A stretch of 60,273 nt of DNA, filler included, from Basidiobolus ranarum (taxonomy: Eukaryota): the NCBI GenBank assembly GCA_040143965.1. It is 10 parts of 10 records of this genome, joined end to end, with 100 filler letters (N's around TTAATTAATTAA, not from the genome) between each part and the next. Parts side by side here need not be neighbours in the genome. Positions count along the whole stretch, not along the records: positions 54,354 to 60,273 come from JASJQH010001464.1; 9 more parts are not named here. One strand, 5' to 3'. Shown here piece by piece: positions 5,952-58,786 of the stretch. The notes below the pieces were generated by a model. That model was given only the letters and a program-made list of their open reading frames with translations, was not told where the DNA came from and did not search any database. The position numbers were made by a program, and so were the translations under genes. Each line of letters opens with the position of its first letter. Position 1 is the stretch's first letter.

Positions 5952-6051
5952 NNNNNNNNNNNNNNNNNNNNNNNNNNNNNNNNNNNNNNNNNNNNTTAAT
6001 TAATTAANNNNNNNNNNNNNNNNNNNNNNNNNNNNNNNNNNNNNNNNNNNN
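5952..6051. other. Artificial contig linker N44-TTAATTAATTAA-N44
   Basis: Identical 100-bp cassette with six-frame stops; genes are cut on both sides. Confidence 0.98.
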
Positions 6052-9000
6052 AGGCAAGAGCTTGAATTTGATGCATTATCACTAGGATGCTGTGTTGTTT
6101 GGGGATTGCGGTTAATACATTAACAGTACATTGACTAAGTTGCTGATCGAGCTCATTGACTAATAGAGAGAACTTCTCCAATGCCTGGTGGGTTCCAATG
6201 GTTGGAGGAGCATTATCATATCCTACATCATAGGAGTGCGCATCTCCCTTAGCGGGGATAGGAGCTCGCAGACTTCTTTCGTCGTACACGTTGGCCAATT
6301 GGCTTTGGAAACGAGGGATTCTGGCAAAATCCTCATAAACTACTAACTGTTGGGGTAATAGGCCATTGGGCTTCAGACGTAAAGAGCTAGGAAGGTTGGG
6401 CGGATAGCGAAATGAGGAAACAACCGCAACATCGTAGAAAGGCTGACCAGTTCGCAATTCTCTGTGCTTCTTTCTATCGGAATACGCATTTGCCAATCCT
6501 TCGTCTATTTGTAGAATAGCAACCTCAATAGTAACTTTCTCAACCACTGAACTTGCAAGATCTAAATTATCAGAAACAGTAATAGAGATTGCTTGGTCCG
6601 GAAAAGTATGTTCAGAAACTCCATTCTGCAATAACATACTACGTAAATGGGTAGCAATTCCACTGCGTAGATTATCTTTGCTAGCAGCAACAGCTAAACT
6701 AGCAGCCAAATTTTGGACCATTACGTGTGCCGCTTGTCTCATTCTATCTTCATTGGGCTCCATTGCGAAATCTTTGGTGATAAGCTCCTGAGTAGTAAAT
6801 CGGGCGATTTTTACTGATCTCTCTACAGTGGCACCAATTGTATCTCTTAAAGCCTGATCCATAGCAACATGAATAACCTGCTTTAATATAGCTTGGTTGA
6901 TAGGTAGGTTGGGATTGACGGAAATATATGGAGCGATGGTGGGAATTATCGCATTAAGAGTATCATCAATGATATCTAGAATTCTTTGAGCATTACTTTG
7001 CTGGGTTTGGCTTGATATTTGATGATGGGCAGGAGCTCTTGAAGCGGGGTCATGATCAAATGATAGGTTATCCATTTCTTGGACAATGTTGGATTGAGAG
7101 ACGAAATCTTTGGGAGGGCGGTCCTTTAGAATTGTAGTAGGCTTTATATCCTTAATATCGAGGTTTAGGCTCTTACAAAGCACTTCGATTTCGAACTTGA
7201 GATTTAGCTTCAGATCTGCGAATTGATAGAGCTCCGCTAGTAGCTTCATAATAGCTATAAGCCAGGGATTTGGAGGGTTGAATATACGGCTCTTGCTACA
7301 CTGCTCCAAAATTTTACAAACAAACGGAATAGCAACAATCAATCGATTAGAGTCGTAGCCTTCGATGAGCAGCTCTTTAAAGGCAATATTCTTGTGTTTA
7401 ATCGGCTTATTCTGTGCCAGTGTCATTCCTCCAAGCCAGGATCCTAGATTTTTGAGTAGCGATCTTTCAGAAGATGATTCAACAGTTTTTTCCGAATTTA
7501 AAAGAACTTGGATATTAACATAGGTTTCATGAAGCAAGTAGCGATAGAGAAGGTCACTCTTGAGAGAATCTAGGAATTGAAGGTAAAGCTGATGATTGTT
7601 GGGCTCAATGCTAGCGCGTTTAGCTACCAAATAGTGACCAAACCAACGAAAAGCAGATTCTTTTAGAACCTCTCGCATTTCTTGAACCTTGGTTTCCATG
7701 TTGCTATGAGCAACATTGTTGATAATAAAAAGTATTTTATCTTGCACTGACTCTGGAGGAGCATCGTTCTCACCACTATCACCGCTAACGAGTAAAGTAT
7801 CGACATTTAGGGAAGTAAAGGCGGGAAGAGTTTTGTTCTTAGGCTGCTCTCCTAAACTGTGATTTTGAGTGTTATCCAAAGGCTGAGGTTCTTCAACATT
7901 ACCTCCAGTGGCAACTTGTGTTAACGGCTGATTCGAGATTTGTCCCAAAATTGCGTTGATATATTGTATAATATCAGGTCGAGTCTGTTGTAGCTTTGGG
8001 ATTTGTAACAAATGAGAACAGTACTGTGGCCATTCGATTAAGCGCGACTTGAATTGAACTAATGCCTGAACTCCAAAATGAAACATTTTGGGATTATCTT
8101 GTTCGGATAGAGCATCCAAGACACACTTGAGAGCTACTCCCAACGGAATGTAAGATATGAGTTGATTTTGAATCAAATTTCCAATCAAGCTACTAGTAAT
8201 TGACAGTTCCTTTGGAGGGTATTTAGGGAAGAATTTGAATTCATCGAACAGATTGTGCATCATGCAGTCAAATACGTCACGATCTCTAGCAACTTGAGAA
8301 CTCTTCAGGCGATGTAAGAGCTCAATCATGCTTTCAACGGACAACTCTTCCTTGTAGCTTTTCTCATAATACATATTAGCCTCTTGTTCAACATCAGAAG
8401 AGAAACTAATTTCAGTAGCGGGAGCGGTTGGGTTAGCATTACCACCTATGTTAGCAAGCTCAGGATATTTCTTGAAGCAAAGAGTTTGAAATTTCTTGAA
8501 CATTTCCGACATCTCTGGTGCAGTAGCACTTGCCTCAATTACTTTTAAGAAAATGCTTATAACCTCGGGAGAGGGCGAAGCAGTAGTGGCTTCATTGTTA
8601 GCTGTCTCCTCAGATCCTGTTTTCTGAGCTAAGTATTCAAAGCATGCTCTAAGGAAAGGCTCACCGTGCGTAGCGACAGAATCCTGTAGCCATTTCTCAA
8701 GATTCAAATATCCTCTTTTACATGCCAACGCAGCAAGATCAATTGCGAAAAAGAAAGGTTGCACTGCAAGCATAGGCTTGATGATCTTGATATCTTGCAC
8801 AACATCAAGAATACGCGAAACGAGATTTGGATTGCTATGATACATATCTAATGCTGCATGTATAAGAAGAGAGTTGTTTATATTCCATAGTCGCCACAAA
8901 ACAAAATTGGAATTTGAATGCCCAGATAGAAATCCAGCAGTTAATTTTGTTACAAGCTTCTGATGTAATGGATTCCATGGCTCCGGAAGTTGAGCAAGAC

Positions 9001-9788
9001 CGAGAAGAATCAATTCTGGCGCCTGTTTAGTTCCTTCCTCGAATAAAGATGTAACATCATCGGTAATATTTGTTTCGTACATAAACATTAAGCTCTGAAT
9101 GAGGTCTAAGTTATTCCAGGGCTGAGTGCATAAGTTAGTAGCAGCATTGGCAAACTGTGGATTAATCGATGCGATATCTTCCGGATCAACGATTTTTTTG
9201 GTAGCCAACTCAGCAATATCAATAACTTCGATAGGTGCCTGAATAGCTTGCTTCAAAAAGCTAAATTGTCCCTTGGTGTTATTCCAGCGATGCCAGAAAA
9301 CATCAAGAGGGAAAGGATCAACGCCTTTCACGGCACATTTATGGGAAGTGGTAATAACGGAAAGTCCGGCTACGCTGGGGATATAGAAGCCTGGATGATC
9401 CAATTGTTGAATCACCACGAGCCAGTCTGTATTGGGTTGGAGTTCAGACAATACAGTGATGAAATTTTCTACGTTCCATTGGCAGTCAACTTCTTTACGG
9501 TCCTCGGCAGCAGTCTGACCTTGAACAGCTGAAAATGTAGCCATAGCACCTAAAGCCTTGGCTATATCACTTTCGTTAATGGTATTACTCGAATTGGGAG
9601 TTTCTAACCCAACATCTCGAAGAAGTGATTTGACTTCAGTAACATCCTTACAACAAGGAGGACCTAGATCTGCGATCTTGCGGGCAAGAGCCGCTTCACT
9701 TTCTGAATAACTAAAACGGAAAACTATGTGTCGATAATTTTGAGATCAAGAGTAGACTAGTAGAGGAAAATTACCTTGTATTGGACAT
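6052..9788 (-). CDS. NOT1: CCR4-NOT scaffold subunit Not1; 3' end cut by contig edge; exons 9775..9788 and 6052..9710
   Basis: Over 1200 codons with Not1 hallmarks FAIDLAALACKRGYLNLEKWL, NLFDEFKFFPKYP, KRASIEPNNH, LLKNLGSWLG, LKLNLKFEIEVLCK and KDFAMEPNE. A GTAATT...TTTTAG intron links MSNT-SYSESE in frame. Confidence 0.95.
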
Positions 9789-10699: not shown

Positions 10700-12002
10700 G
10701 TTCAACAACTATTATATATGGTTACTACTATGAGTTGCATTTTGACAAGTAGCTCTTTAATTTCCTGTTTAGTAATTGACGGCATATCATAATGTGTTAA
10801 ATGCCCGAACGTATCTGTATAGAGGAAGCCAAATGAAGAGCTGTGTATATGTAACATGGGGAAAACAGCGATTGTTTCGTAGCCGAAATGACCATAGATA
10901 GAAGAAAAAGCATAAGAAAGGGTGGCCGAATATGAGTAATTACAAGCACTCCGTTGAGTTCATGAGTGTCTTAATATCTGCAGTTGTGACAGGCCTGTGT
11001 TCTAGACAATAGCACAATGACTGAGACGGATTGATTTTCTGCGAAAGGTAATAGCATGCCGATTTAGCGCAACTAACATGAAATCGATGTTTACATCCCG
11101 GATTAGAACACTGAATTGGATATCCCTCATTTGATTTGCATAAATCACACTGTTTAAAAAGAGTTACTATCGTGTGGTCATGTTTCAAAGATGGTCAACA
11201 ATAATACCTGAAGGTTTATCGAAGGGTGAAAGCGATACAAGCCAGTAGCTACTTCGACTTGAGAGCCATCAGGATTGTTGCTGCGAATGATACAAATCCC
11301 TGACGTAAATTGAGCGCATAGTCTATGAAAAGCGTTTTAATACAACATCTACTACCACCAAAGCCTATTTGCTTACCTATGTATCCACCTTCCTTCGTCG
11401 GTGCGCAACAAATTTTGCTGATTTGTGTCTGGACACAAAACGCACTGCAAATAGAATCGTGACATTGGTATCGTAGCTCTCAGCGTATAAATTAAGATGT
11501 GGATTCTTACCTGCCGCAGTCGATCCCGTTTAACCAATTTAAGTACTGGTAACTTCATTTGGTCATTTATGCCAGGTTCAGCTCGCGGTTGAATAAAAAC
11601 AGACCAATCTTTAATAGCATCTACTGGTACTTTCCCTGGTATAATTAATGATGGCTTCTGCGAGGCTGTTTTCTCAACCTCAGTTTCATTTACAACTTTC
11701 CTATCAAATATAGAAGCAACGTCGATTGTGACAGCATCACCGATGCATTTACACGGTTTCGCCTTCTTTCCGATCTCGACCCAATTCTCGAGAGCAAAAT
11801 TCACTGATTCAGCACAGTTATATCCCAGATTATAACCTGAGTGATACCCATGTGGAAAAGTAATCATGAATTCGCCTTCCTTTTGTACACATTTGTAAAC
11901 AGGAATCGAGTTATGGGCCAGAATAGTCGGAGATATGTGAAAGGTTTTATGGCGTAAAAATTGCGAGCATTTCTTGTACTCTTGAGAGAAATAGCCTTAT
12001 GG
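10700..12002 (-). CDS. KDM4/Rph1-like JmjC histone demethylase, 3' part with extended PHD-type zinc finger; multi-exon; 3' end approximate
   Basis: FLRHK and GEFMITFPHGYHSGYNLGYNCAESVNFA (JmjC end), followed by CVLC...WIHRLCA and CDLC...IQC...C..RFHVSCA...CLEH across GT-AG introns. Confidence 0.85.
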
Positions 12003-14757: not shown

Positions 14758-16815
14758 TTAAAGTAGAGTACTTACATATTCTTGAACATCCTCAATAAGA
14801 TGTATTCCTCTCTTTTTAACGACGTAGATACTGGATTTACTAGGCTCGGAAGCGTCTTCTTCTTCGGGTGGGCCACACGTTTCTTGTACAAAGTATTGAT
14901 CGTGAGAGATTACGATCACTGAGCCTTCGAATGTTTGAAGTGCTTCGCCAAGTCCCTTGATAGACTCTAAATCCAGATGATTAGTGATTTCATCTAAGAG
15001 CAACAAGTGTGGATTGGTTAACATGGACACCGCTAACGCAACTCGGGATTTCTGTCCGCCAGATAACGTGGTTAGAGGTTGCAGAGGAACGTTCCCTGAC
15101 AGGCCAAAGTTCCCTATGAATCTTCTTGTCTCTTGCAAATCTTTAAGTTCTATGGAACCACTGATTTCAGCACTCTTTTTCTGGATGTAGGTAACAGCAG
15201 ATTCATCCGTTATATTGAGTAAATCTACGTGATGCTGAGAGAAGTATCCGATACGCAAGCTTGGGTTTCGTTCAATTGATCCCTTGGTCTGACGCAAAGT
15301 ACCACTAATAAGGTCTACCAGAGTGGATTTACCACTACCGTTTGCACCCACGAATCCAATACGTGCTCCAGGCTCGATACTTAAGGATATTGACTTCAAT
15401 ACATCCGTGGTTGAACCGGGATACCTGAAGGAGATATCTCGGAGCTGTAGCATTGGCCCTGTATTTCGTAAAATATCCGGCTGAGGAAGAGTAAATGTAA
15501 CAGGGGCTTCAGGTTTCTCAAGCTCCACCTGAACCCTCTGATCAAAGTGATATCCCGCATGGTAAGATATCTTGAAGCGCTTACCATCCTCCGTCTTATC
15601 ATAACCCATTCTTTCCAACTTCTTCTTCCTCGACGCAACCATGCCCAGTCGTTTATCATCACCACTAGCCTTTGCATGTTGAAGGCCTTTCTCTATGGAC
15701 TTTTGGATGTGCTTTTTCTTCTTCTCAATGTTATCGTGAAGGTGCTGTTTCTTCTTGGCTACATCTGCAGTATTCCTTTCAAAGTCATCATAATTGCCCG
15801 GGTGATACGTTAGGGTTTTTTTCTTGAAACAGATGATCTCATCCACAACCGAGTTCAAAAAATGACGATCATGTGATATAATTACAATGGTCTGATCTGT
15901 AATACTGGATAAATAGGACCTTAACCATACAATAGCTGGTAGATCTAAATGATTTGTAGGTTCATCTAGTAACAGCACTCTCGGTTTCATATACAACGCC
16001 TGAGCCAAAGCTACCCGCATACACCACCCACCGCTTAATTCACTGACAGGGGCGTCTTGCTGTTCTTGACTAAATCCAAGGCCTGTAAGGATATCGCGAA
16101 CTACTTCATCATCATCATCTTCCTCTAGTAAGGTCAATTTCTCGTAGAACTCTGAGAGCATATCGTAAATAACGGTGGTTTCTACTTGTGGCAGTTCTTC
16201 GGCAAGTTCCAACTTTTTAGTCACTTCAAGTGCCTTAGCCTCGGATTCGAGGGCTTTAGAACGAGCTTCTAGACCTCGTCTACCACTACGTTTTATGGCA
16301 GCTTGATTGTCCTCTTCCAGTTTTTCATGAGCTTGTTTAGCCATAACATTGTAGGCGGCCTTATTAAGAGCAGCAGGAGTGTTCAGTTCTAAGGCCTCTT
16401 CTAACTCGGAGATATTATCCATCACTTTACCACGTTGAACGTCCACACTTAACACCGTATCGACAACGGAGCGATCAAAAGATTGTTCCTTCGTATCCTG
16501 AAGTTGCTCTATGTACAAAGTACTGATATTCTTTGGAAAACCAATGAGTTTACCAAAACCGATACTCTTTAGTAAAGTAGATTTACCGATACCGTTACGT
16601 CCGATTAAACCGTAATGAGTACCAAACTTTAACAGTAATCGAGCGTCAGTGAGTAAATCGTTAGAGTTTACGGTAATGGTCACACCAGGAAGGTCAACAT
16701 CTTTCGACTGAGTTTCAATGGATTCGTTGTGGAAACGAGAGGCTTGGGAAATGGCAGAAACCGAGCTCCAAAACTCATCCTTATTGGCAGTCAAGGAAAT
16801 GGTTTCCTTGGTCAT
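14758..16815 (-). CDS. ABC-F family soluble ATPase (ABCF/GCN20-related), intronless, 685 aa
   Basis: Two nucleotide-binding domains: GRNGIGKST/LSGGW/LLLDEPTNHLD/ISHDR and GANGSGKST/LSGGQ/LLLDEITNHLD/ISHD. Coiled linker and no transmembrane segments. First ATG at 16815. Confidence 0.92.
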   Translation of the reverse strand: MTKETISLTANKDEFWSSVSAISQASRFHNESIETQSKDVDLPGVTITVNSNDLLTDARLLLKFGTHYGLIGRNGIGKSTLLKSIGFGKLIGFPKNISTLYIEQLQDTKEQSFDRSVVDTVLSVDVQRGKVMDNISELEEALELNTPAALNKAAYNVMAKQAHEKLEEDNQAAIKRSGRRGLEARSKALESEAKALEVTKKLELAEELPQVETTVIYDMLSEFYEKLTLLEEDDDDEVVRDILTGLGFSQEQQDAPVSELSGGWCMRVALAQALYMKPRVLLLDEPTNHLDLPAIVWLRSYLSSITDQTIVIISHDRHFLNSVVDEIICFKKKTLTYHPGNYDDFERNTADVAKKKQHLHDNIEKKKKHIQKSIEKGLQHAKASGDDKRLGMVASRKKKLERMGYDKTEDGKRFKISYHAGYHFDQRVQVELEKPEAPVTFTLPQPDILRNTGPMLQLRDISFRYPGSTTDVLKSISLSIEPGARIGFVGANGSGKSTLVDLISGTLRQTKGSIERNPSLRIGYFSQHHVDLLNITDESAVTYIQKKSAEISGSIELKDLQETRRFIGNFGLSGNVPLQPLTTLSGGQKSRVALAVSMLTNPHLLLLDEITNHLDLESIKGLGEALQTFEGSVIVISHDQYFVQETCGPPEEEDASEPSKSSIYVVKKRGIHLIEDVQEYVSTLL

Positions 16816-18047
16816 GAGAGGTTTTCTGTAATTAATTATCAATAGGTATTTTACCCAAAAAATGATTGTTTATGCCAGTTTATTCTCTCTCGTATATATA
16901 GACATACTATATCCCACCGAAATTCCGCAGTGTAAAGAACCTCCAATTTACCAATTGGCGCCACCGTATTCGTTCATTGGTTTCACTCTGATGGACTTTA
17001 GGTGATTCGAGCACCAACATAAAATGCTTTCAATCGGGATCTATGAAGCATCACATTTCCATATTCAGTAATCAATTAAAGACCACCAATTCATTAGAAG
17101 GTCTAGTATCTGAGCGAGGTAAGTTGGCCATCTTTGAGATTTCCGCAGAATTCTTATATTTAGCGATATGGAGTGGGTGGCTGTAGGGAAAAAATCCATG
17201 TTATTTGGTGAAAAAAGAAGTGGTCGAGTGGATAATATGGATAAACTCCATAATAGAATATGGCCGGAATTTTTCTCAGGATTTGCCGTGTGAATTGGAT
17301 ATTTTATCCGAGTTAGTAGCATCACAGTAATGTAATACGTAGATTTACAGATCTCAGTCATGGTGCTGCAACCACCAAATTCATTGGATACTCAAGGGAA
17401 ACTAAAGGTATAGGTACCAAGTCAAAGATAATTTAATTGAATACTCTAATAGTTTCTTCTTGGATATGCTCATTGAAAATTGAGGACCAAAAGATTCCAA
17501 AAAAAGTGGGTTAAAACTAACCCTAAGAATTCTACTTGAGCTCCCTTCCGATCCTAAGGAAGAATACCCAGACACAGGGGTGATCTGCATTTCTATCAAA
17601 GAAAATGTTTGGTCGGCTAACTCTTTGATTTAAAACAGTTGATATACATTTTTGAACGGGTGTTGCCGTATAGGATCAAAGTTATTGAGAACCTCATAAT
17701 CAAGAACTATCTGCTCCTTAGCCTGATGACACATAAGCAGCCTTTCTTTGTCTTCTATACAGCTTGTAGGACCGATTGACATATCAACACCTTTGTGTGC
17801 AACCATCCAGTACAGCATGGCCAACAGAGTGAGACAGGCCTAGGGAATATAGAAAAAGGTACTTGGATCATCGATCATTTCTTCTTGAGTTGAGGAGGGA
17901 ACCATTTTAATGAGCGCAACTGCTATAAGATAAAATTTAGGGGGGATGAAAAGCACCAGATGGTGTAGACTTTATTTAGCTTAAATACTAATCTAAACAA
18001 AGTGACAATCAAGACATCAATCTTTTGAGATATTGTGACAATACTGA

Positions 18048-18147: not shown

Positions 18148-18705
18148 CCTGATTGCCCTGATCGCGTCGTGCAAAAAGGGAGACCAATAGAGCTTCAGAT
18201 TGTCAAGACTAAGCATAAAGGGTGGGGGGTTCGAACCATGGAGCCAATCCCTAAGGGGACATTTGTGGAAGAGTATGTTGGTGAGATTATCACTAATGAG
18301 GAGGCGGAGAAGAGGGGGCAGGCATATGATGCTTGCGGGTTGACTTACCTATTCGATTTGGACTTTGAATCTGGAGCGGAATCAGATTGTGACTTCACCA
18401 TAGACGCTTATCGCTATGGAAACGTTTCTCATTTTTTCAACCATTCTTGTGAGCCCAATTTACGCGTGTATCCTGTCTTCGTTGATCACTGGAATTTGAA
18501 GTTACACCGACTGGCATTTTTTGCTATCAAAGACATCCCACGATTTACCGAGCTGACGTTCGACTATGCCGGAGTCTCTATCTTCTATGATGAGCTTGGC
18601 AACCCGTTCCCGTATATGCCACACATGGACCATGGTGATAAGAAGATTAACGAAGTCAAATGCTACTGCGGCGCAGCCAATTGCCGAGAATATGTTCACC
18701 TGTAA
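18148..18705 (+). CDS. Clr4/SUV39H/DIM-5-type H3K9 methyltransferase, SET plus post-SET; 5' end cut by contig edge
   Basis: End of pre-SET CPDRVVQKG, KGWGVR, EYVGEII, YLFDLD, GNVSHFFNHSCEPN, ELTFDY and post-SET CYCGAANCR. Confidence 0.9.
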   Translation, partial: PDCPDRVVQKGRPIELQIVKTKHKGWGVRTMEPIPKGTFVEEYVGEIITNEEAEKRGQAYDACGLTYLFDLDFESGAESDCDFTIDAYRYGNVSHFFNHSCEPNLRVYPVFVDHWNLKLHRLAFFAIKDIPRFTELTFDYAGVSIFYDELGNPFPYMPHMDHGDKKINEVKCYCGAANCREYVHL

Positions 18706-20898: not shown

Positions 20899-21922
20899 TT
20901 ACATATCTTGCTCGCATAAAACAAGGTTTCTAGAAATCACAACCTGAATCAATTGCTTGCCAATTTTTAAATACCGAAAGTATATCCACTTACTTGACTA
21001 AAAGAGCCTCCACAGCCTCTTCATCAAATCGATCCCCAAGTTCCTCAGTAACTCGAATAAGGTTTGCCACAAGTGTCCCGTTTTTGTATGCCAATATGGC
21101 GGGTAGAGCTATGGGATCAAAGTCGGGATCAGCTTCGACTGAAGGAATCTTAAGGAATTTAGCGTGTACGTATCTAGCTGCTATCCGGTCAAGACACTCG
21201 TTCATACGTTTGCACTCCAGAAAACGCTATATGCAAGATCATGAACTTGGTTTTAATATATCCACAAAAGATCAATTCCAATAGTCTTACATTATCGTAG
21301 AGATGTATAACAACAGGAATATTGGAAGCTTCAGCGTCAATGGCTTCGATATACCCGTCAGAGCCAATTCTTTGGACAGTACCAAAGCGAGGTTTAGAGC
21401 TATATATATACGAGTTTGTTCGTTCATTATTTCTGGTATATTTCAAGTTCTAGTACGCATAATAAACATACCTTCTTGTGTGGATCTGACGAATTCGAGA
21501 TTCACGATAACTTTGAAAAAACTCGTCATCAGAGTCAATGTCAGATTCTTCGTCTTTTGTTGGTTCAGGTGCTTGAGAAGAGGCCCAGTTAAGTTTGTTC
21601 ATAAATTCCACCAATTTTTTTTCTTCTTTCTCTCCCTCTATCTTTCTGTGTTGACGATAATCTGCCATAACACCTTTTGGCCCTGTTTGAGGACCATTAT
21701 GCATGGCTTGCATCAGTTTAGAAGGTGCTTCTTCCTGATTATATTAGTTAGAAATTAATAACCTACTAGGTAAGACAACTTAGGCTAACATTTATAAGAT
21801 TAACTTACATCTACTTCAGCATCAGATTCTGCTTCGCTAACATCACTGTCGTCAGTGCGAACGGGCTCAGGATCATCTTGGACTCCGCTGTCAAAAACAA
21901 TACGATCTAACCCTTCAGCCAT
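20899..21922 (-). CDS. Phosducin-like protein (PhLP1 type), multi-exon
   Basis: QTGPKGVMADYR helix-1 motif and thioredoxin-like domain (VVIHLY, KFLKI, LPAILAYKNG, VEALL). Several GT-AG introns; the last exon reads NLVLCEQDM*. Confidence 0.88.
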
Positions 21923-24850: not shown

Positions 24851-27800
24851 ATGAACCTTCAAACAGATACTCGTTCTGCCAATATCGCCGTCTCCCATGA
24901 AATGGACTGCCCGCCGTTCGCGGTAGCACGTCGTAGAAGAGCCCAATCTGTTTCACATTTAACCTACGCGTTAACTTCGGCCTTAAAACTACCTTCCATC
25001 AACGAAACTGATAACGGTTACCACTATCATTCACCTCAACAAAAAGCTTACCCAATTGCGAAGGTTCCAAGCTGGGAACCCACTTTAGAGCATGCCATCA
25101 AGGCCATTGTGTCTATCAGAGCTAACCACGTTCGAAGTTTTGATACCGAGACTTCTGGTAACTTTCAAAATTCAATATTACTTTGTTGACCGGTGGTTTA
25201 AAGAATTTTCTATATTCATTAGGCTCTTATACTGCTACCGGGTTCGTGGTGGATGCTGAACGCGGAATTATTCTATCTAATCGACATGTAGTTAGTCCTG
25301 CCCCAATTATTGCTCAAGCAGTATTCACTAATTATGAGGAAGTAAGTCTTCAACCGATTTATCGTGATCCTGTGCATGATTTCGGATTCTTCAAGTTCGA
25401 TCCAGCAGCAATCAAGTTCATGAATCTAGTGGAGATTCCACTCACCCCGGACCGAGCCAAGGTAGGCTTAGACATTCGTGTCGTGGGGAATGATGCGGGA
25501 GAAAAATTGTCCATCTTGGCTGGTACCTTAGCTCGTCTTGATCGTAGAGCACCTGATTATGGCGTTGGCGAATATAACGACTTCAACACCTTTTACTTGC
25601 AAGCTGCGTCTGGTACCAGTGGTGGATCATCTGGTAGTCCTGTACTTGACATTGAGGGCCATGCTATTGCTTTAAACGCTGGCGGTGCCTCCAGAGCGTC
25701 TTCAAGTTATTACTTACCATTAAATCGTATTGTTGCCGCGTTGAAGTACATCAAAGAAGGAAAAACTGTTCCACGTGGTACGTTCCAAACCGAATTTGAG
25801 CATCTCCCTTACGACGATATTCGTAGACTTGGTCTTAAGGCTGAACTGGAAAAAGAGATCCGTGAAGTGTTCCCTCATGAGACTGGTTTGTTGGTTGTTC
25901 GCCAAGTACTCTCCAAAGGGCCGGGTGATGGAGTCTTGACTCCAGGTGATATTGTTCTCCGCTTAAATGGTGAATATCTCACCAATTTTGTAGATTTATT
26001 CTCAGTCGTTGATGAGTCGGTAGGAGCCGATATTCGCTTAACGATTAGTAGAGGCTCGAAAATAATGGAAGTTACACTCAAAGTTCAAGATTTACATTCA
26101 ATTACCCCTAATAAGTTCGTAGAAATTGGAGGTGGTACTGTTAATGAACTTTCTTACCAGCTGGCCAAGGGATTTAGCCAGCCTGTTGGTGGAGTATATG
26201 TAGCAACAAGTGGACATATGCTAGCTAGTGCAAGCGCGTGGCGTAAAAGTATTATTCTTAGCGTTAATCATATCCCTACGCCAAACCTTGATGCCTTTGT
26301 TGAGGCTATTAAAACTCTTCCTGATGGCGCACGTGTACCAATTCGCTATTACTCTCTCTCGAAGGTATACAAAGAGCGCTTAATGATCATGAATGTTGAT
26401 CGTCACTGGCACAACTTTAGAGTAGCAGAGCGTGATAATAACACTGGACTTTGGCATTATGAAGACATGCCCCCGCCACCTGCCATTCATTCTTATTCTC
26501 CAGCTACCGCTTCATTCCCTACGTTGGATGGAAATATGAAGTTAGCTGGAAAATTACTACCTTCCTTTGTAGCTATTGATTTTCATATTCCTTACTTGGT
26601 GGATGGTATGAAGGACACCCAGTTTTACGGTATAGGTCTTGTTTTGGATACAAGCCGTGGGCTTATTATCTGTGACAGAGATACCGTCCCCATCTCTATC
26701 GGTGATATTTTCCTCACGTTTGCGAACTCTATCATCATACCTGGTCGTCTTATCTACCTTCACCCATACTTTAACTTTGCCATATTAAAGTATGACCCAG
26801 AGCTTCTTGGAGCGACTCCGGTCAAAGCAGCAGATATTCTCTATGATCATCCACTCGCGCAGGGTGACGAGGTTCACATGGTTGCTGTTAGTGCAGATCA
26901 TAACCCACTAGTTAGACGTACCTATGTTACCAGTATTGGCAATGTAGCAACCCGAGAATGTTCTCCCCCCAGATGGAGAGCAATGAATGTCGAAGGAATC
27001 AAGCTAGATGATCCAGTTTCATGCCAAGGAGGGGTGTTGTGTAATTCCGAAGGTCAAGTACTTGCACTGTGGATCAATTATTCCAGTCAAAATGATAAGC
27101 AGAAAGATATCTCTTTCATGACAGGATTTTCAGTTGATCATCTTAGACCTGTTATCGAACCCCTTATAAAAGGAGAATCCCCCAATTTAAGAACCGTAGA
27201 TGTGGAATTCTGGACGCTACGAATCGCCGCCGCGAGAACATTAGGTTTGACTGATGAATGGGTCCAACGACTTGAGTCTTCAGGAGCAAATCAACATACT
27301 CTACTTTATGTTCTCAGTTTACTTTCATCCAATTCACCAGTTTCCAAAGTCCTGAATGTTGGTGATGTAGTCCTTGAGATGAACGGGAAAATCGTTAACA
27401 AGATGAGTGACCTAGCTCAGTTCAATACAGAAGAACTAGTTGAAATGGTGAGAATATTTAGATTATCGATTTGTGTATAATTCAGGTGATTGACATCAAC
27501 TTCCTTGTAGAAAATTCTTCGAGATGGACATGAACACACCGTCAGTGTTCCAACCGTTCCACTCGATGGTTTAGGAACCACCCGAATTATAGGTTGGGCT
27601 GGAGCACTGGTTCAAGAGCCTTACCGAGCCGTATTAGAGCAAGTTAAAAATATCCCTCAGGGCGTGTACGTCTCCTGTACACTCTATGGTTCACCAGCCA
27701 ACACGTACAATCTTAAACCAGGAGTGTGGATCTCGGAAATCAACGATATTCCAGTCCACGATCTTGAATCATTTTCCGAAGCGGTGAAATTGCTGAAGAG

Positions 27801-27972
27801 TCGACCACAGGAAAATAATGACGATGAATATATTCGCCTCAAGACTATCAGTCGAGCAGGGGAAACAGTTCGAGTACTCAGTCTAAAGACAGATGAACAT
27901 TACTGGCCTGCTTGGCAATTAGTACAAGACGAAGACACTACTGTCGGATGGAGATGCATTTTTGAAATTTAA
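24851..27972 (+). CDS. NMA111: HtrA-like pro-apoptotic serine protease Nma111/Ynm3; exons 24851..25157, 25223..27447, 27511..27972; 997 aa
   Basis: Catalytic motifs SNRHVV, YRDPVHDFG and GGSSGSPV; GNDAGEKLSILAG; duplicated protease-PDZ architecture; C-terminal DEHYWP. Both introns are GT-AG and restore frame. Confidence 0.95.
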
Positions 27973-48329: not shown

Positions 48330-48739
48330 GGGATATCGGTAAAATTGACCACAACGGATACTGGTATATCACCGATCGTCTTAAGGAGCTAATCAAGTAC
48401 AAAGGATTCCAGGTGGCCCCAGCTGAACTCGAGGCTAAGTTGAATTCCCACCAAGCAGTTGCTGACGCTGCTGTTATCCCCGCTCAAGATCCCTCTAATG
48501 CTACCGAAATACCCAAAGCATTTGTAGTGTTGCAACCAAAGTATGCACCAAGTGATAACTTGAAATTGGAAATTATTCAATTCCTGAACAAGCAAGTGGC
48601 TCCACACAAGAAACTCCGTGGAGGTATTGAGTTTGTTAGTACCATACCCAAAAGTCCCTCAGGAAAGATTCAACGTAAAATCTTGAAAGAATTACAAAGA
48701 GCAAGGGAAAAAGAAATGCGGACTAGCGCTAAACTCTGA
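48330..48739 (+). CDS. 4-coumarate-CoA-ligase/luciferase-like acyl-CoA synthetase, C-terminal part with PTS1
   Basis: GDIG, ITDRLKELIKYKGFQVAPAELE, KKLRGG and IPKSPSGKIQRK; ends in AKL*. 5' end cut by the contig edge. Confidence 0.92.
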
Positions 48740-50833
48740 GTTATACGTAATCTGACAACTCGGTTTGCTATTGTAAAGTATCAATAAATCATACATTTAA
48801 TATCCTTATACCCTAAAACATTTTGAATTTCAACTAAAAAACGTACCTCAACATATGCAGAATGATCATGAGGGATTTCCGAATTGACCATGCCATTGAT
48901 ATTACTATTAATATTGTGCCACTAAGCTGTTCTAGGTTCATAGCAGAAGCCACCACTTTCAAATTTTTATACTGACTCAATAAAGTCCATACAAATTTGT
49001 CTTTCATGGTGTCTATTAACTTTTTTTACACGTAATATGGCCCCATTTTGAGGACCTTTGTCAGTGGACTATGTTACTATGAATCTTCATAGAAATAGTT
49101 GATGAATGCAGTTAGAATCACTGGTACAATTCTTATGCATATGTTAGACTTGCTTTCATATTGTAGATACCCATCTATCATTTTACCAAGCGTAGGATCT
49201 CATATTAAACATACACTTCATTATCTACAAGTGTTATTTATACTAAACGTGCTATATTCATGATCTTGTGGACTTTGAAAAAACCATAATGTAAGATATC
49301 AATACTTGTACCTATACTAAGTTGCTAATAAATAGACTTTAGTTGCTTAATGCCCGCTTAAGTTAGCAACTATCCTGGTGGGCATTGTATGTTCATACAT
49401 TCTTTTAAGTAACATATTCTAATTATCGAGATGATTTGGCAGTTCTTTTTGGCACAATATTATTACAAGAACGAAAGGAATACCTACTACATGCATGCTC
49501 TATGTATTCCAGAGATATCAATCTTGTATATGGATTTTGACACCTCGCCTGCACTGACCATCTCATCACAGCACAGTTTTTTAAGTAATGTGTAATTCCA
49601 CTTGTTTTTTGATGACAACAAACTCCATTCTCTTCCATTTCCGTCATACACCTCCCACTGTTATTAAACGTCTATCAGCCAAAGCAATATCAAGAGTACA
49701 CTATTGATCTGGACACAATAACTAGTTAATCATGGGAGATATTAACATCTAACAGAAATGAAAGTATTTTCTGAGATGGAAACTAAGATTCATTGGTAAA
49801 TCTACTCCCTATATGAGTGAACTATATATGGTAAGTGTATATACAATCATTTATAGGTTGTTACTCTCATGCATAATTTAAATATTAACAGGGTGGTACA
49901 AATTCATATATTCGGGAAGGCTACTTGTTGTTCCTTGATGATGCTGTAAATACTTGATAGTTAATATTTTCAAAATAAACTTGTAGATGAATATTCAAAT
50001 CTTTCAAACATGAACTTCACACATGCCCAATTCCATGCTGCTGGGTTTTCCCCAGGATATTGATAACCAGTCACTTGATCCTTATTCAGCGAAGTTGAGT
50101 TGAGGATGAATGGAACGATCATAGAACTAAAGACACTGATATATTGGTAGTGACTAGAAGATGTGACTGATAAAGCGCTCCAAATACTTCAGGGTAGGAG
50201 TAATCTAACTTGGCTACGTCCATTGATGCCAGGCCACGTTCATGGTTCAACAGGCTAAACCGCAGAACGGCAAAGGTATTTTAATTCCCCCGTAACTGAG
50301 ATTTGAATTAATCATTCTTCTAGGCGAGGTTTCAGCCCTCATTGGTTGCTATCTATCAACAATCCGACCTGGTGAAAGTCAATTCATCACTCCTATTGAT
50401 GGCAATTTTGCCTTGTATAATGAGGGGGGATCTGGTTGGTTTTATTTCCCTGCTTACTAAAACAATTGTGTGCTCTGTAAGACGTCCGTAGCATCGCTCG
50501 GCGGTGAAGCCTGTTCGCGAGTCGTATTTTACAATCACTAGTTCAGATTCCAGGAACTTAAATAACGTGACATAGCCAGCTTTTGACTCATTACCATCTC
50601 GAAGCATTATGATCATCAAGTGAAAATTCAAATGAAGCGAAGCAATGTCTGGTTTGAAAAAGTGTCGGTGATTAAATTGCAATACGTGTTGGCTGTGATG
50701 GGTGTGATGATAATACTCCAATCAACACGCCCAAAATTAGGCCCATAATTACTATGGGGCACCGTTGAGTCACGCCTTTGGCAATTTTCTTATCGGTGGC
50801 AAAAGGTATATATAATCCTGGTTTCGGCTGATA

Positions 50834-51820
50834 ATGTCCGACATTGAAATAATAACAATCATCATCACGGCTGACAAATTCAACAACGAAACTACAGCAG
50901 AGGAGGCTGCTGCTTTATTTGCTAATGATATCAAGGGAAAAGCCGTACTAGTAACAGGAGGTACTTTGGGTGGCCTTGGGGCTGAAGCAGCTCGTGTTAT
51001 AGCCAAGTATAGTGCGGGTCCTGTCATTCTTAGTGGTAGGAAGCAGGATGCTCTAGACGACAGTATTAAAAAGATCAAGGAAGAAACACCAGAAGCCAAG
51101 CTGCGTTCCCTTATCATCGATTTAGCGTCACTCGAATCTGTTCGTCATGCGGCCAAAGTGGTCAATGAGTACTCCGAGCCCATCGACATTTTAATCAACA
51201 ATGCTGCTATCATGGCCTCCCCCTATAGTACCCTAACGGATGGATTTGAGTCACAATTTGGCGTCAACCACCTTGGCCCTTTTCTATTCACTAATTTAAT
51301 ACTGCCCCGAATTCTTGCATCCAAAACTGGTGCTCCACGTATTGTTAATGTCTCTAGTATAGGACACGGCTTTGGCCCTGCTCGACGATTATGGTTTCAA
51401 TAATGGCAAAGACTACAAAAAGTGGGAGGCATATGGCCAATCAAAGACAGCCAACATGTTGTTTGCACTGGAGCTGAGCAACCGATACAAGGAAAAAGGA
51501 CTCAGTGCATTCAGTCTCCATCCTGGAGGGATTAGAACCAATCTTATAAGATACGTGGATGTAGATACCGAGACCGAAACCATTGTTGGCGCCGATGGTA
51601 AGCCGCTAGTGATTGAGGATTTTAAGTGGAAAACATTCCCCAGGGTACGTCGACTCACATTGTTGCTGCTTTCGACCCGTCCATCAAAGATAAAAGTGGT
51701 TCGTACTTAGAGGATGCACAAGTCAATAATGCGGCTGCCAAACCATATGCGCTAGATGATACTAATGCCCGTAAATTGTGGGCTTTAAGTGAGAAGCTAG
51801 TTGGCCAGAAGTTTGATTAA
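50834..51820 (+). pseudogene. Short-chain dehydrogenase (retinol-DH/WWOX-like), frameshifted
   Basis: TGGTLGGLG, LINNAAIM, QFGVNHLG, VSS, YGQSK, LHPG and ARKLWALSE are split over three ORFs. Frameshifts near 51380 and 51635, with no intron signals. Confidence 0.8.
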
Positions 51821-53884: not shown

Positions 53885-54253
<369 letters not shown>

Positions 54254-57545: not shown

Positions 57546-57587
57546 GTTATCTATGTAGAATGACGGATGAAGAGTCAAATGTCATAC

Positions 57588-58786
57588 CTATCTGTTCAGA
57601 AAGTTCTCTTTATAGGTAGTTTTATCAATTTTCAAATGATAAATATTGACGCTGAAATTTGCCCAAGTGGTACGTTGGATGCTCCCGATGTTGTGCATAT
57701 TTTGACAAAATACCTAAAAATACAAGTTTAGTAATAGTAACCAACTGCCACTGTAGATCGTAGATGTAATTACTCTATCTCCGCGTCTTTGAATTCCTTT
57801 CCAATTATCCGGAAGTTTATTTGGCCGAACAACCAATGTATTGTTATGGCATTCAAAATCACTGTCTCTGACTAGTAGCTCAAAGCATCGACAACACCGC
57901 AATCCGGAATGAACGCGTTTCGTTTGATCAAACTTGTAAAGGAGATTAGATTATCAGTATACGAAGAATGTATAGAAAAATCAATGCTTGAATTACATCA
58001 ACATCTTGAGATGACTCCGTATTGTGGGGTTGCTGAGTACTCTCGGGTGAGCTGCTGTTACGAGACTGGAAGAAGTGTATTTATATCAGTATCTGTTCAA
58101 CGTTAGTTGAAGTGAAAAATTGAGAATTACTCCAGCAACATAATTCGTATCAAAGCCTCTATATTTTTTAGTGTGCTCAAAGTCTATATCTTCATCTATT
58201 ATAGGTCGTTTTGTAACTGCATTAGGCGGTAGTTCACAACCTATAACTCTTTTTGGGACCTGTAAAATAGTTCAGCATATATATTATCTGTGAGACAACA
58301 AAACAAGCAATCATACCTCTTCTTTTTTCTCAATCTCTACTTTTTTTTCGACTTGTACGTTTATATGGACATGTGTTTTTGAAACTGAATCTGTATTGAT
58401 CAGGATCTTTGAGGATATGAGGTATGATGTGTAAGTATGAACATGTCAAGTGAATAATATAGATGAAAGCTTTATACTTCAGTCGGAATAGTATCTTTAG
58501 ATCCAATTACATCAGATATATCGGCATCCTGAGTAACTTGGAACCCACTCTGTTGAGTATAAATGCCCATTAAATATACATTAGGATACCAGAAGCTTCA
58601 AGTAAGAATTATATTCTTTACCAAAAGATCTTCAGCAAGTTTGTTGGGTAATCCATTTTCCGCATTGTTAAAGCTGCTCTGGTCTGTCAACAATATTCGT
58701 TTGCGTTTCCTCAATTCCTTTTTGTATAATTTCTTTTTCTCTTTGGAAGTTAGGTCAGCTTTATCCATCATCGAAGTAAAGTCATT
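57588..58786 (-). CDS. Unknown protein, 7 spliced exons (58622..58786, 58478..58549, 58317..58406, 58131..58259, 57997..58065, 57774..57932, 57588..57713) ending in a CxxC...CxxxH domain; 5' end unresolved
   Basis: Six GT-AG introns of 57-72 nt. All exon lengths are multiples of 3, giving 269 uninterrupted codons before TAG. Basic NLS-like KKELRKRKR. Confidence 0.7.

Follow-up and report, generated by a model that had tools for sequence, protein, structure and literature searches.

The stretch of DNA analysed here (the window) is 60,273 nucleotides long. It consists of ten contigs of about 6 kb each, joined by nine N44-TTAATTAATTAA-N44 spacers that lie within window positions 5952-54353. The source assembly is eukaryotic, with 65 Mb in 13,754 contigs. 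The gene described below is located on the last contig (window 54354-60273; G000:C1464) and is single-copy in the genome. Genes across the spacers are uninformative as neighbors because the parts are separate contigs. The GAPDH-like frame at 53885-54253 is part of the preceding contig and not of the neighborhood of the gene. Other long frames on the remaining contigs are presumably Not1-like (5999-9745, minus strand), JmjC demethylase-like (11376-11996, minus), ABC-F ATPase-like (14761-16869, minus), SET domain-like (18148-18702, plus), phosducin-like (21453-21743, minus), Nma111-type protease-like (25162-27969, plus), acyl-CoA ligase-like (48330-48736, plus), and short-chain dehydrogenase-like (50816-51707, plus). 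Pfam searches with nine further ORFs of the gene's own contig gave no credible match. Open frames of 139 and 96 amino acids lie downstream on this contig (window 55943-56675, minus strand); they also had no credible Pfam match and are possibly exons of some other unannotated gene.

The gene occupies seven exons on the minus strand from 58771 to 57588. The exons are separated by GT-AG introns of 57-72 nt, all in phase 0, and encode a 264-residue protein with a single stop (Table 1). The model was built independently and agrees exon by exon with NCBI record P0001 (hypothetical protein K7432_013942, Basidiobolus ranarum, 264 aa), an annotation that is itself a prediction. N-terminally, the protein has a basic helix; a disordered linker, which contains one conserved motif, connects it to a C-terminal β-tent domain.

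Table 1. Exons and features of the Basidiobolus gene in window coordinates.
Feature	Position	Strand	Evidence
Exon 1, aa 1-50: start codon, Lys/Arg-rich helix	58622..58771	-	Gene model and NCBI record; homologue match
Basic helix aa 9-37 with KRKR, NLS-like (putative localization)	58661..58747	-	AlphaFold2 helix; K/R windows in homologues
Exon 2, aa 51-74, low complexity	58478..58549	-	Only model and NCBI annotation; flanked by 72- and 71-nt GT-AG introns
Exon 3, aa 75-104, low complexity	58317..58406	-	Model and NCBI annotation
Exon 4, aa 105-147	58131..58259	-	Model and NCBI annotation
Short conserved linker motif, aa 107-116	58224..58253	-	Alignment; regex; pLDDT rise to 63-68
Exon 5, aa 148-170, Ser/Gln-rich linker	57997..58065	-	Model and NCBI annotation
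Exon 6, aa 171-223: first half of β-tent, HxGLRCxxC knuckle, inserted β-hairpin, β4	57774..57932	-	Model, alignment, AlphaFold2
C183-x2-C186, putative first Zn ligand pair	57885..57896	-	Both 28/28
60-nt phase-0 intron, GTAATT...TTTTAG, position conserved in distant eukaryotes	57714..57773	-	Model, NCBI annotation, metagenome loci
Exon 7, aa 224-264 and stop: C226-x3-H230 knuckle, β6-β7 hairpin, K251, KTT-x-x-E-N-F end	57588..57713	-	Model, alignment, AlphaFold2
C226-x3-H230, second Zn ligand pair (putative Cys3His site)	57693..57707	-	Both 28/28
Spliced β-tent domain, aa 177-261	57600..57914	-	pLDDT 96-98; VIA-align Z 7.7-8.2
GTATGA donor-like site directly after the stop	57582..57587	-	Sequence; homologue intron position

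A preliminary description of this DNA had proposed that the last two exons join to form one domain, only half of which is visible in an ORF track. Both points hold, and the coordinates and motifs are confirmed. Exon 57774-57932 supplies 53 codons and exon 57588-57713 supplies 41 codons plus the stop, both in phase 0. The intervening intron (57714-57773) starts with GTAATT, contains a CTAAAC branch-like site, and ends with TTTTAG. The TAG of the acceptor is an in-frame stop, so ORF tracks show half of the domain. An HMM of 27 homologues that excluded the Basidiobolus protein scored the spliced domain at 116 bits, compared with 51 bits for exon 6 alone, 54 bits for exon 7 alone, and 53 bits for the unspliced frame. 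The same HMM gave a best score of 5.8 bits against 200 shuffles (197 reported). Seven transcript-derived homologues are continuous across the junction. Eight metagenome loci, which represent about three distinct sequence types, all have AG immediately 5' of the V[YF]C codon, the same phase-0 intron position, and a GT donor is found 30, 50, or 53 nt upstream in seven of the eight (L013 is outside this scoring). In three near-identical homologous loci (L006-L008), the introns are short (about 30 nt) and in frame, one of them apparently stop-free; such introns lead gene callers to output fragments (compare the P0039 cluster, with 53 members). The support for splicing comes from the NCBI prediction, the transcript-derived homologues, and the intron position in the metagenome loci, and indicates that 57714-57773 is a real intron, as the preliminary description held.

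Homologues contain a second conserved intron. The AA|GT junction is present in all seven loci that reach this point and is followed by a C-terminal extension (P-x-F...I-x-N-K...D-R-Y-H) that is found in most homologues. The Basidiobolus protein, the sponge protein P0010, and the metagenome protein P0047 end before the extension. The GTATGA that follows the Basidiobolus stop is 4 nt beyond the homologues' intron site and is possibly a relic 3'-UTR intron, judging by its position and sequence. An HMM of the extension found no match downstream of the stop within the window. Both Basidiobolus and the sponge lack the extension, which may reflect a truncation that the two opisthokonts share, with a UTR intron as its relic. 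The missing extension, the stop just before a donor-like site, and the source of the splice support would also suit a truncated, non-functional relic or a splice that is an artefact of prediction. This explanation is extremely unlikely. The 264-residue frame is open with all invariant residues intact, the intron position is conserved, and the sponge transcript and P0047 end at about the same point.

The distribution of the protein was determined with phmmer using residues 171-264 against 1.84 billion representatives (E ≤ 0.001, no length limit). The 40 proteins recovered were the Basidiobolus protein, 38 genuine homologues or fragments with 39-53% identity, and one false match, a 2,312-residue repeat protein with no CxxC (P0033) that was discarded. 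Names were obtained for eight of the 30 matches looked up: Oscarella pearsei, Diphylleia rotans, Rhizamoeba saxonica, Physarum polycephalum, Pelomyxa schiedti, Paratrimastix pyriformis, Blastocystis sp., and Ancoracysta twista. The remainder are unnamed metagenome or transcriptome records. The named organisms comprise one animal, one CRuMs protist, several amoebozoans, one metamonad, one stramenopile, and one provoran. There was no second named fungus among the 30 matches looked up, and the family extends across several eukaryotic supergroups, so the earlier label of a fungal-type protein is not supported. This spread suggests an old protein that was lost from most model organisms. Transfer or contamination may lie behind single records, and contamination is possible for the sponge because its evidence is one transcriptome record. 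The patchy distribution prompted the idea of a minor-spliceosome component; none of the 30 matches looked up carried a vertebrate or plant name, and the idea was abandoned for that reason.

Residue counts are based on 28 domains, which omit 13 of the 40 matches as partial, intron-retaining, or spurious (P0012, P0020, P0021, P0029, and P0032-P0040) and include P0047. A tree of the 28 domains grouped Basidiobolus with the sponge record P0010 and P0047 at 95/83, a rough support value from a tree in which most other branches were unresolved and the bootstrap had not settled. The N-terminal 28 residues of Basidiobolus and the sponge protein are identical at 17 of 28 positions. Excluding the false match, the 39 family members range from 68 to 386 residues and none contains a Walker A or DExH helicase motif, in agreement with the helicase-free protein first described. 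At least 10 Lys/Arg residues per 20-residue window are present in 19 of the 24 homologues with a long N terminus. The linker motif K-R-[VI]-[YI]-G-x-x-x-P (K-R-[VI]-[YF]-G-type) was matched by a regular expression in 18 of 28 rows. The Blastocystis homologue P0026 has an extra B-box/ZZ-like zinc finger at residues 57-91 (sub-threshold in Pfam, best E = 3.6e-4). No further added domain was seen in the family.

Established resources do not name this family. Pfam returned nothing relevant for the separate exons or the whole Basidiobolus protein, and scans of the homologues gave no β-tent family at cut-off (in the full-length scan, among the best 25 of 52 families). Neither the protein nor its full-length and domain profiles matched a β-tent sequence in the PDB at E ≤ 10; the single match was a poly-Q artefact. 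Word-indexed homologue searches are insensitive here, since they returned 1, 4, and 2 already-known proteins. Pattern scans confirmed 0 of 110 candidate stretches from viral contigs and 0 of 27 from prokaryotic genomes, which is weak evidence of absence, and a lone 22-residue tblastn match in phage was due to chance. No description of the family was found by locus tag or, among the papers listed, by topic in a search of main texts that covers few subscription papers, and the accessible parts of PMC6723221, PMC11377751, and PMC12881547 contain none. The PF11648 literature, judged by titles, concerns animals only. The protein very probably represents a new, unnamed family of stand-alone β-tent proteins.

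AlphaFold2 with 36 sequences modeled residues 181-260 at pLDDT 96-98 and the middle of the protein as disordered; the pLDDT was 34 with a single sequence. The N-terminal helix (residues 9-37) has block pLDDT values of 95 and 93 at residues 11-30 and 67 at residues 31-40. The β-tent consists of two orthogonal antiparallel sheets pinned by zinc through two knuckles, with a hairpin inserted after β2, according to the accessible text of Lupas et al. 2015 (PMC4287342). The model has strands at 181-183, 189-191, 218-220, 223-225, 231-240, and 243-250 and an inserted hairpin at 196-199/202-205. Comparison of the model with 48,161 PDB representatives gave Mis18-α (Z = 8.2; 4.2 Å over 81 residues), Schizosaccharomyces pombe Mis18 (Z = 8.0), the C-terminal domain of duck RIG-I (CTD; Z = 8.0-8.1; 2.6 Å over 81 residues), cereblon (Z = 7.7; 2.7 Å over 75 residues), and MsrB1 (Z = 7.7). 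LGP2, MDA5, DRH-1, YPEL5, Mss4, DRH-3, and TCTP followed. A Z of about 8 is middling on its own, and the top of the list is uniformly β-tent, with ranks 1-22 all β-tent by title or covering that domain. A repeat of this VIA-align comparison gave the same tie between Mis18, the RIG-I CTD, cereblon, and MsrB1 (Z = 7.7-8.2). Foldseek placed the RIG-I CTD (E = 0.011) ahead of cereblon (E = 0.014), with no match at E ≤ 0.001. SelR and Yippee-Mis18 clusters in the Atlas at TM of about 0.6 are leads only, as are the language-model neighbors of a homologue at 0.77-0.86 (At4g08330, Yippee-Mis18, RIG-I_C-RD, FAM72, STEEP1, and EAPP). An Atlas feature search with the Basidiobolus protein itself was uninformative (best 0.80). 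The viral structure library gave nothing at E ≤ 0.001, and the best relevant match was a viral MsrB at E = 0.12. A homodimer prediction with zinc and without an alignment scored 0.00 with an uncertain fold and carries no weight either way. The model identifies the C-terminal domain of about 88 residues as a β-tent, the fold that the preliminary description had proposed for it.

C183, C186, C226, and H230 are invariant in all 28 domains, and the second knuckle is C-x3-H in all 28. This invariance makes a Cys3His zinc site likely, with H230 as the fourth ligand, and agrees with an early suggestion about the histidine that had named conservation in homologues as its test. The other β-tent families have cysteine-based zinc sites or have lost the site, according to the accessible text of PMC4287342. 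The family has no conserved cysteine beyond 183, 186, and 226. All three are putative ligands, which argues against MsrB-type catalysis.

The preliminary description had compared the domain to the C-terminal RNA-sensing domain of RIG-I-like receptors (RLRs). RLRs are absent from fungi and their CTD had no similarity outside the family in the accessible part of Mukherjee et al. (PMC3879448); the domain was later linked to CULT and Yippee (PMC4287342, accessible text). PF11648 (RIG-I_C-RD) is the only β-tent among the 11 Pfam families matched by 23 domain-only members, and it matches two of the 23 with a best E of 0.15. Residues 47-126 of P0047 align colinearly with profile positions 3-90 (15.1 bits, E = 0.028), below the 25.6-bit cut-off, and the profile did not match the Basidiobolus protein. 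At full aligned length, the RIG-I CTD also fits with the smallest rmsd, 2.6 Å over 81 residues compared with 3.6-4.3 Å for Mis18 at a similar length. The proposed resemblance stands insofar as PF11648 is the only β-tent Pfam family with a full-length signal; it falls short in that this signal is sub-threshold and the structure is tied with Mis18, cereblon, and MsrB1. A 17.3-bit PF11648 match elsewhere in the genome was rejected as the knuckle of a copia-type retroelement (L002; G000:C3347:669-2430). This locus is a fragment of a copia-type LTR retroelement with a broken integrase-like frame. A PF18119 search of the genome for an RLR-type helicase gave no match, and its control was likewise silent, so the genome may still encode one.

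Recognition of RNA ends by RLRs uses a capping loop with H847, F853, and F856 together with K858, K861, and K888, as given in the accessible parts of PMC11346460 and bioRxiv 10.1101/2022.08.02.502180. In the AlphaFold2 secondary structure of the family domain, β4 (218-220) and β5 (223-225) are linked by a two-residue turn, and the Cys2-to-Cys3 spacing is 37-44 in all 28 domains. This turn would leave no room for a capping loop, so the RIG-I loop with H847/F853/F856 is predicted to be absent. By motif spacing that is in part our assumption, K251 and R223 would fall at the places of RIG-I K888 and K861. Position 251 is basic in 22 of 28 domains, 223 in 14, and both in 10; positions 220, 223, and 251 are all basic in four.

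Other β-tent families are no closer by profile. PF03226 did not match the Basidiobolus protein or any of the 23 domain-only members. The genome also carries one Mis18-like gene and two Yippee genes that closely resemble each other (L003, G000:C2671; L004, G000:C452; L005, G000:C2207), labels that come from PF03226 matches above or near cut-off and from reading the translations. The family profile does not match these genes, and hhalign against their single exons gave probabilities of 1.3% and 2.0%. The cage tryptophan of cereblon and Yippee directly follows a glycine. The position after the invariant G233 of the family is variable and mostly small or polar (5 Asn, 4 Ser, and 4 Thr of 28), and β5 has no conserved tryptophan. 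The tri-tryptophan cage therefore appears to be absent, judging by the alignment. The cage residue is W99/W82 in cereblon/Yippee, and cereblon is reported absent from fungi, in the accessible text of PMC4287342. Eapp_C matched part of one of the 39 proteins at E = 0.66 only, and no orphan Yippee-clan family matched at cut-off.

According to the accessible text of Lupas et al. (PMC4287342), the cradle is where every β-tent protein has its binding site, a point against an interface on sheet I. Conservation in the family is distributed differently. The means over unselected segments of the 28 domains are 0.84 for β1 and the knuckle, 0.78 for β8 and the helix, and 0.47 for both β4-5 and β6-7. The RIG-I/cereblon-type cradle is the least conserved part (0.47), and the opposite face formed by sheet I and the C-terminal helix is the most conserved (0.78-0.84). 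An eight-residue sheet I set had a mean of 0.95; it was picked after conservation was known, and the unselected segment means were used instead. Mis18 dimerizes through V22, I31, and Y114 of sheet I (PMC4818781, accessible part), which makes this face a known interface. The conserved sheet I residues may instead be structural, serving the zinc knuckle and the packing of the C-terminal helix. Conserved positions on the cradle side are N200 (27/28), G201 (24/28), an aromatic at 225 (28/28), K/R251 (22/28), and N242 (22/28). The domain is net basic in all 28 rows, a charge that would likewise suit a cradle that binds RNA.

The reading we favor, at an even chance or slightly less, is that the protein is an adaptor in a nuclear RNP or chromatin complex. 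The KRKR-containing basic helix would take the protein to the nucleus or nucleolus. Zinc would act as the structural pin of the β-tent, and the domain, as a non-catalytic adaptor, would bind a conserved partner in the RNP or chromatin complex that is probably acidic or a nucleic acid. The contact surface would be the polar, basic side of sheet I together with the C-terminal helix (H178, R182, K/R185, K254, T255, T256, E259, and N260), not the RIG-I/cereblon cradle. Chain BL of the Tetrahymena mitoribosome (6z1p; Z = 6.6) and chain 56 of the human post-catalytic spliceosome (P-complex; 9fmd; Z = 4.6) are β-tent-like and are precedents for the fold inside RNPs.

Three other functions were weighed against this adaptor. 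The cradle could read a peptide or small molecule, with the protein serving as an E3-ligase or complex adaptor like cereblon, YPEL5, or FAM72, which has a ligase role. The tied fold scores (cereblon Z = 7.7-7.9 at 2.4-2.9 Å; YPEL5 bound to WDR26 Z = 6.6) are compatible with this function, and the conserved T-W-[TA]-N tip (W/F/H240, N242) could form a pocket with the invariant aromatic 225. It is unlikely, given the variable residue at the cage-tryptophan position, the lack of a LON domain, and the silence of PF03226 in the 23 domain-only members. Slightly less probable still is a helicase-free binder that takes RNA duplexes or 5' ends into its cradle, as the RIG-I/LGP2 CTD does, and may serve RNAi or antiviral surveillance. 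The colinear match of PF11648 to P0047 and its hits in two of 23 domain-only members, the first place of the RIG-I CTD in Foldseek, its 2.6 Å fit over 81 residues, and the basic residues at the presumed K888 and K861 positions (22/28 and 14/28) all point toward such a binder. Its difficulties are the Z scores tied with Mis18, cereblon, and MsrB1, the lack of a Foldseek match at E ≤ 0.001 or of a PDB sequence match to the domain profile at E ≤ 10, the lack of room for a capping loop, the pairing of basic residues at 223 and 251 in only 10 of 28 domains, and the absence of a helicase motif from all 39 rows. A single copy with a slow-evolving core would also be atypical of immune receptors.

A diverged Mis18-like centromere or chromatin factor that oligomerizes through sheet I would account for the top or tied Z scores of the Mis18 chains (8.0-8.2), for the conservation peak on the Mis18 dimer face, and for the basic nuclear-type helix. 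We consider it highly unlikely because the genome has separate Mis18-like and Yippee genes that the family profile does not recognize, the conserved face is polar and basic where the Mis18 interface residues are hydrophobic, and there is no long C-terminal helical domain. The candidate nucleic-acid sensor of the preliminary description is not supported: a capping loop would find no room in the model, conservation is lowest in the cradle, and a single-copy gene encodes a protein with a basic, NLS-like helix.

These results add an apparently undescribed family to the β-tent fold; its putative zinc site has His in place of Cys, its intron is conserved, and it is represented in several supergroups. 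No other family found in this analysis connects by full-length sequence, albeit weakly, to the RNA-sensing domain of RLRs outside animals, so an 88-residue protein allows a direct test of where that domain came from. The findings are not evidence for RIG-I-type immunity in fungi. The protein is not an RLR because it is predicted to lack a capping loop, its two basic positions co-occur in only 10 of 28 domains, its cradle is the least conserved part, and no helicase is attached; it probably does not work like an RLR CTD either. One evolutionary proposal, on balance rather unlikely, makes the family a helicase-free survivor that is sister to the RLR CTD, an RNA-binding Cys3His β-tent that predates animals. 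It would then have persisted in a sponge, in an early-diverging fungus, and in several lineages of protists. Such a domain would have been grafted onto a Dicer-like helicase to give rise to RLRs, with the capping loop as a later animal addition. If true, this bears on the open origin of the RLR domain.

Comparison with known systems places the family beside several β-tent proteins. It shares the fold, a colinear sub-threshold profile match, a lysine on the last cradle strand, and a net basic charge with the RLR CTD (RIG-I, MDA5, LGP2, and nematode DRH-1/DRH-3; PF11648). The RLR CTD has a Cys4 zinc site, whereas the family has Cys3His; unlike RLRs, the family is stand-alone with no helicase or CARD, measures about 88 residues compared with about 125, has a basic N-terminal helix but no capping loop, and occurs in fungi and protists. 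Mis18/Yippee proteins (YPEL and Moh1; PF03226) are likewise small stand-alone eukaryotic zinc domains of the same fold (Z = 8.0-8.2 for Mis18 and 6.6 for YPEL5), and the conserved sheet I face of the family resembles the dimer face of Mis18, but they have two CxxC motifs where the second knuckle of the family is C-x3-H, and the family has no aromatic cage and no profile match. The cereblon CULT domain shares the fold (Z = 7.3-7.9; 2.4-3.8 Å), and the family lacks its tri-tryptophan cage and LON domain. MsrB/SelR and Mss4 also share the fold (Z = 7.7 and 6.4), but the family has no conserved catalytic cysteine and the identity is 8-11%. The orphan Yippee-clan proteins EAPP, STEEP1/CXorf56, FAM72, and At4g08330 combine a low-complexity region with a zinc β-tent domain, a design resembling that of the family. 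They are its language-model neighbors (0.77-0.86, a lead only), and the family differs from them in its distinct motifs and Cys3His site.
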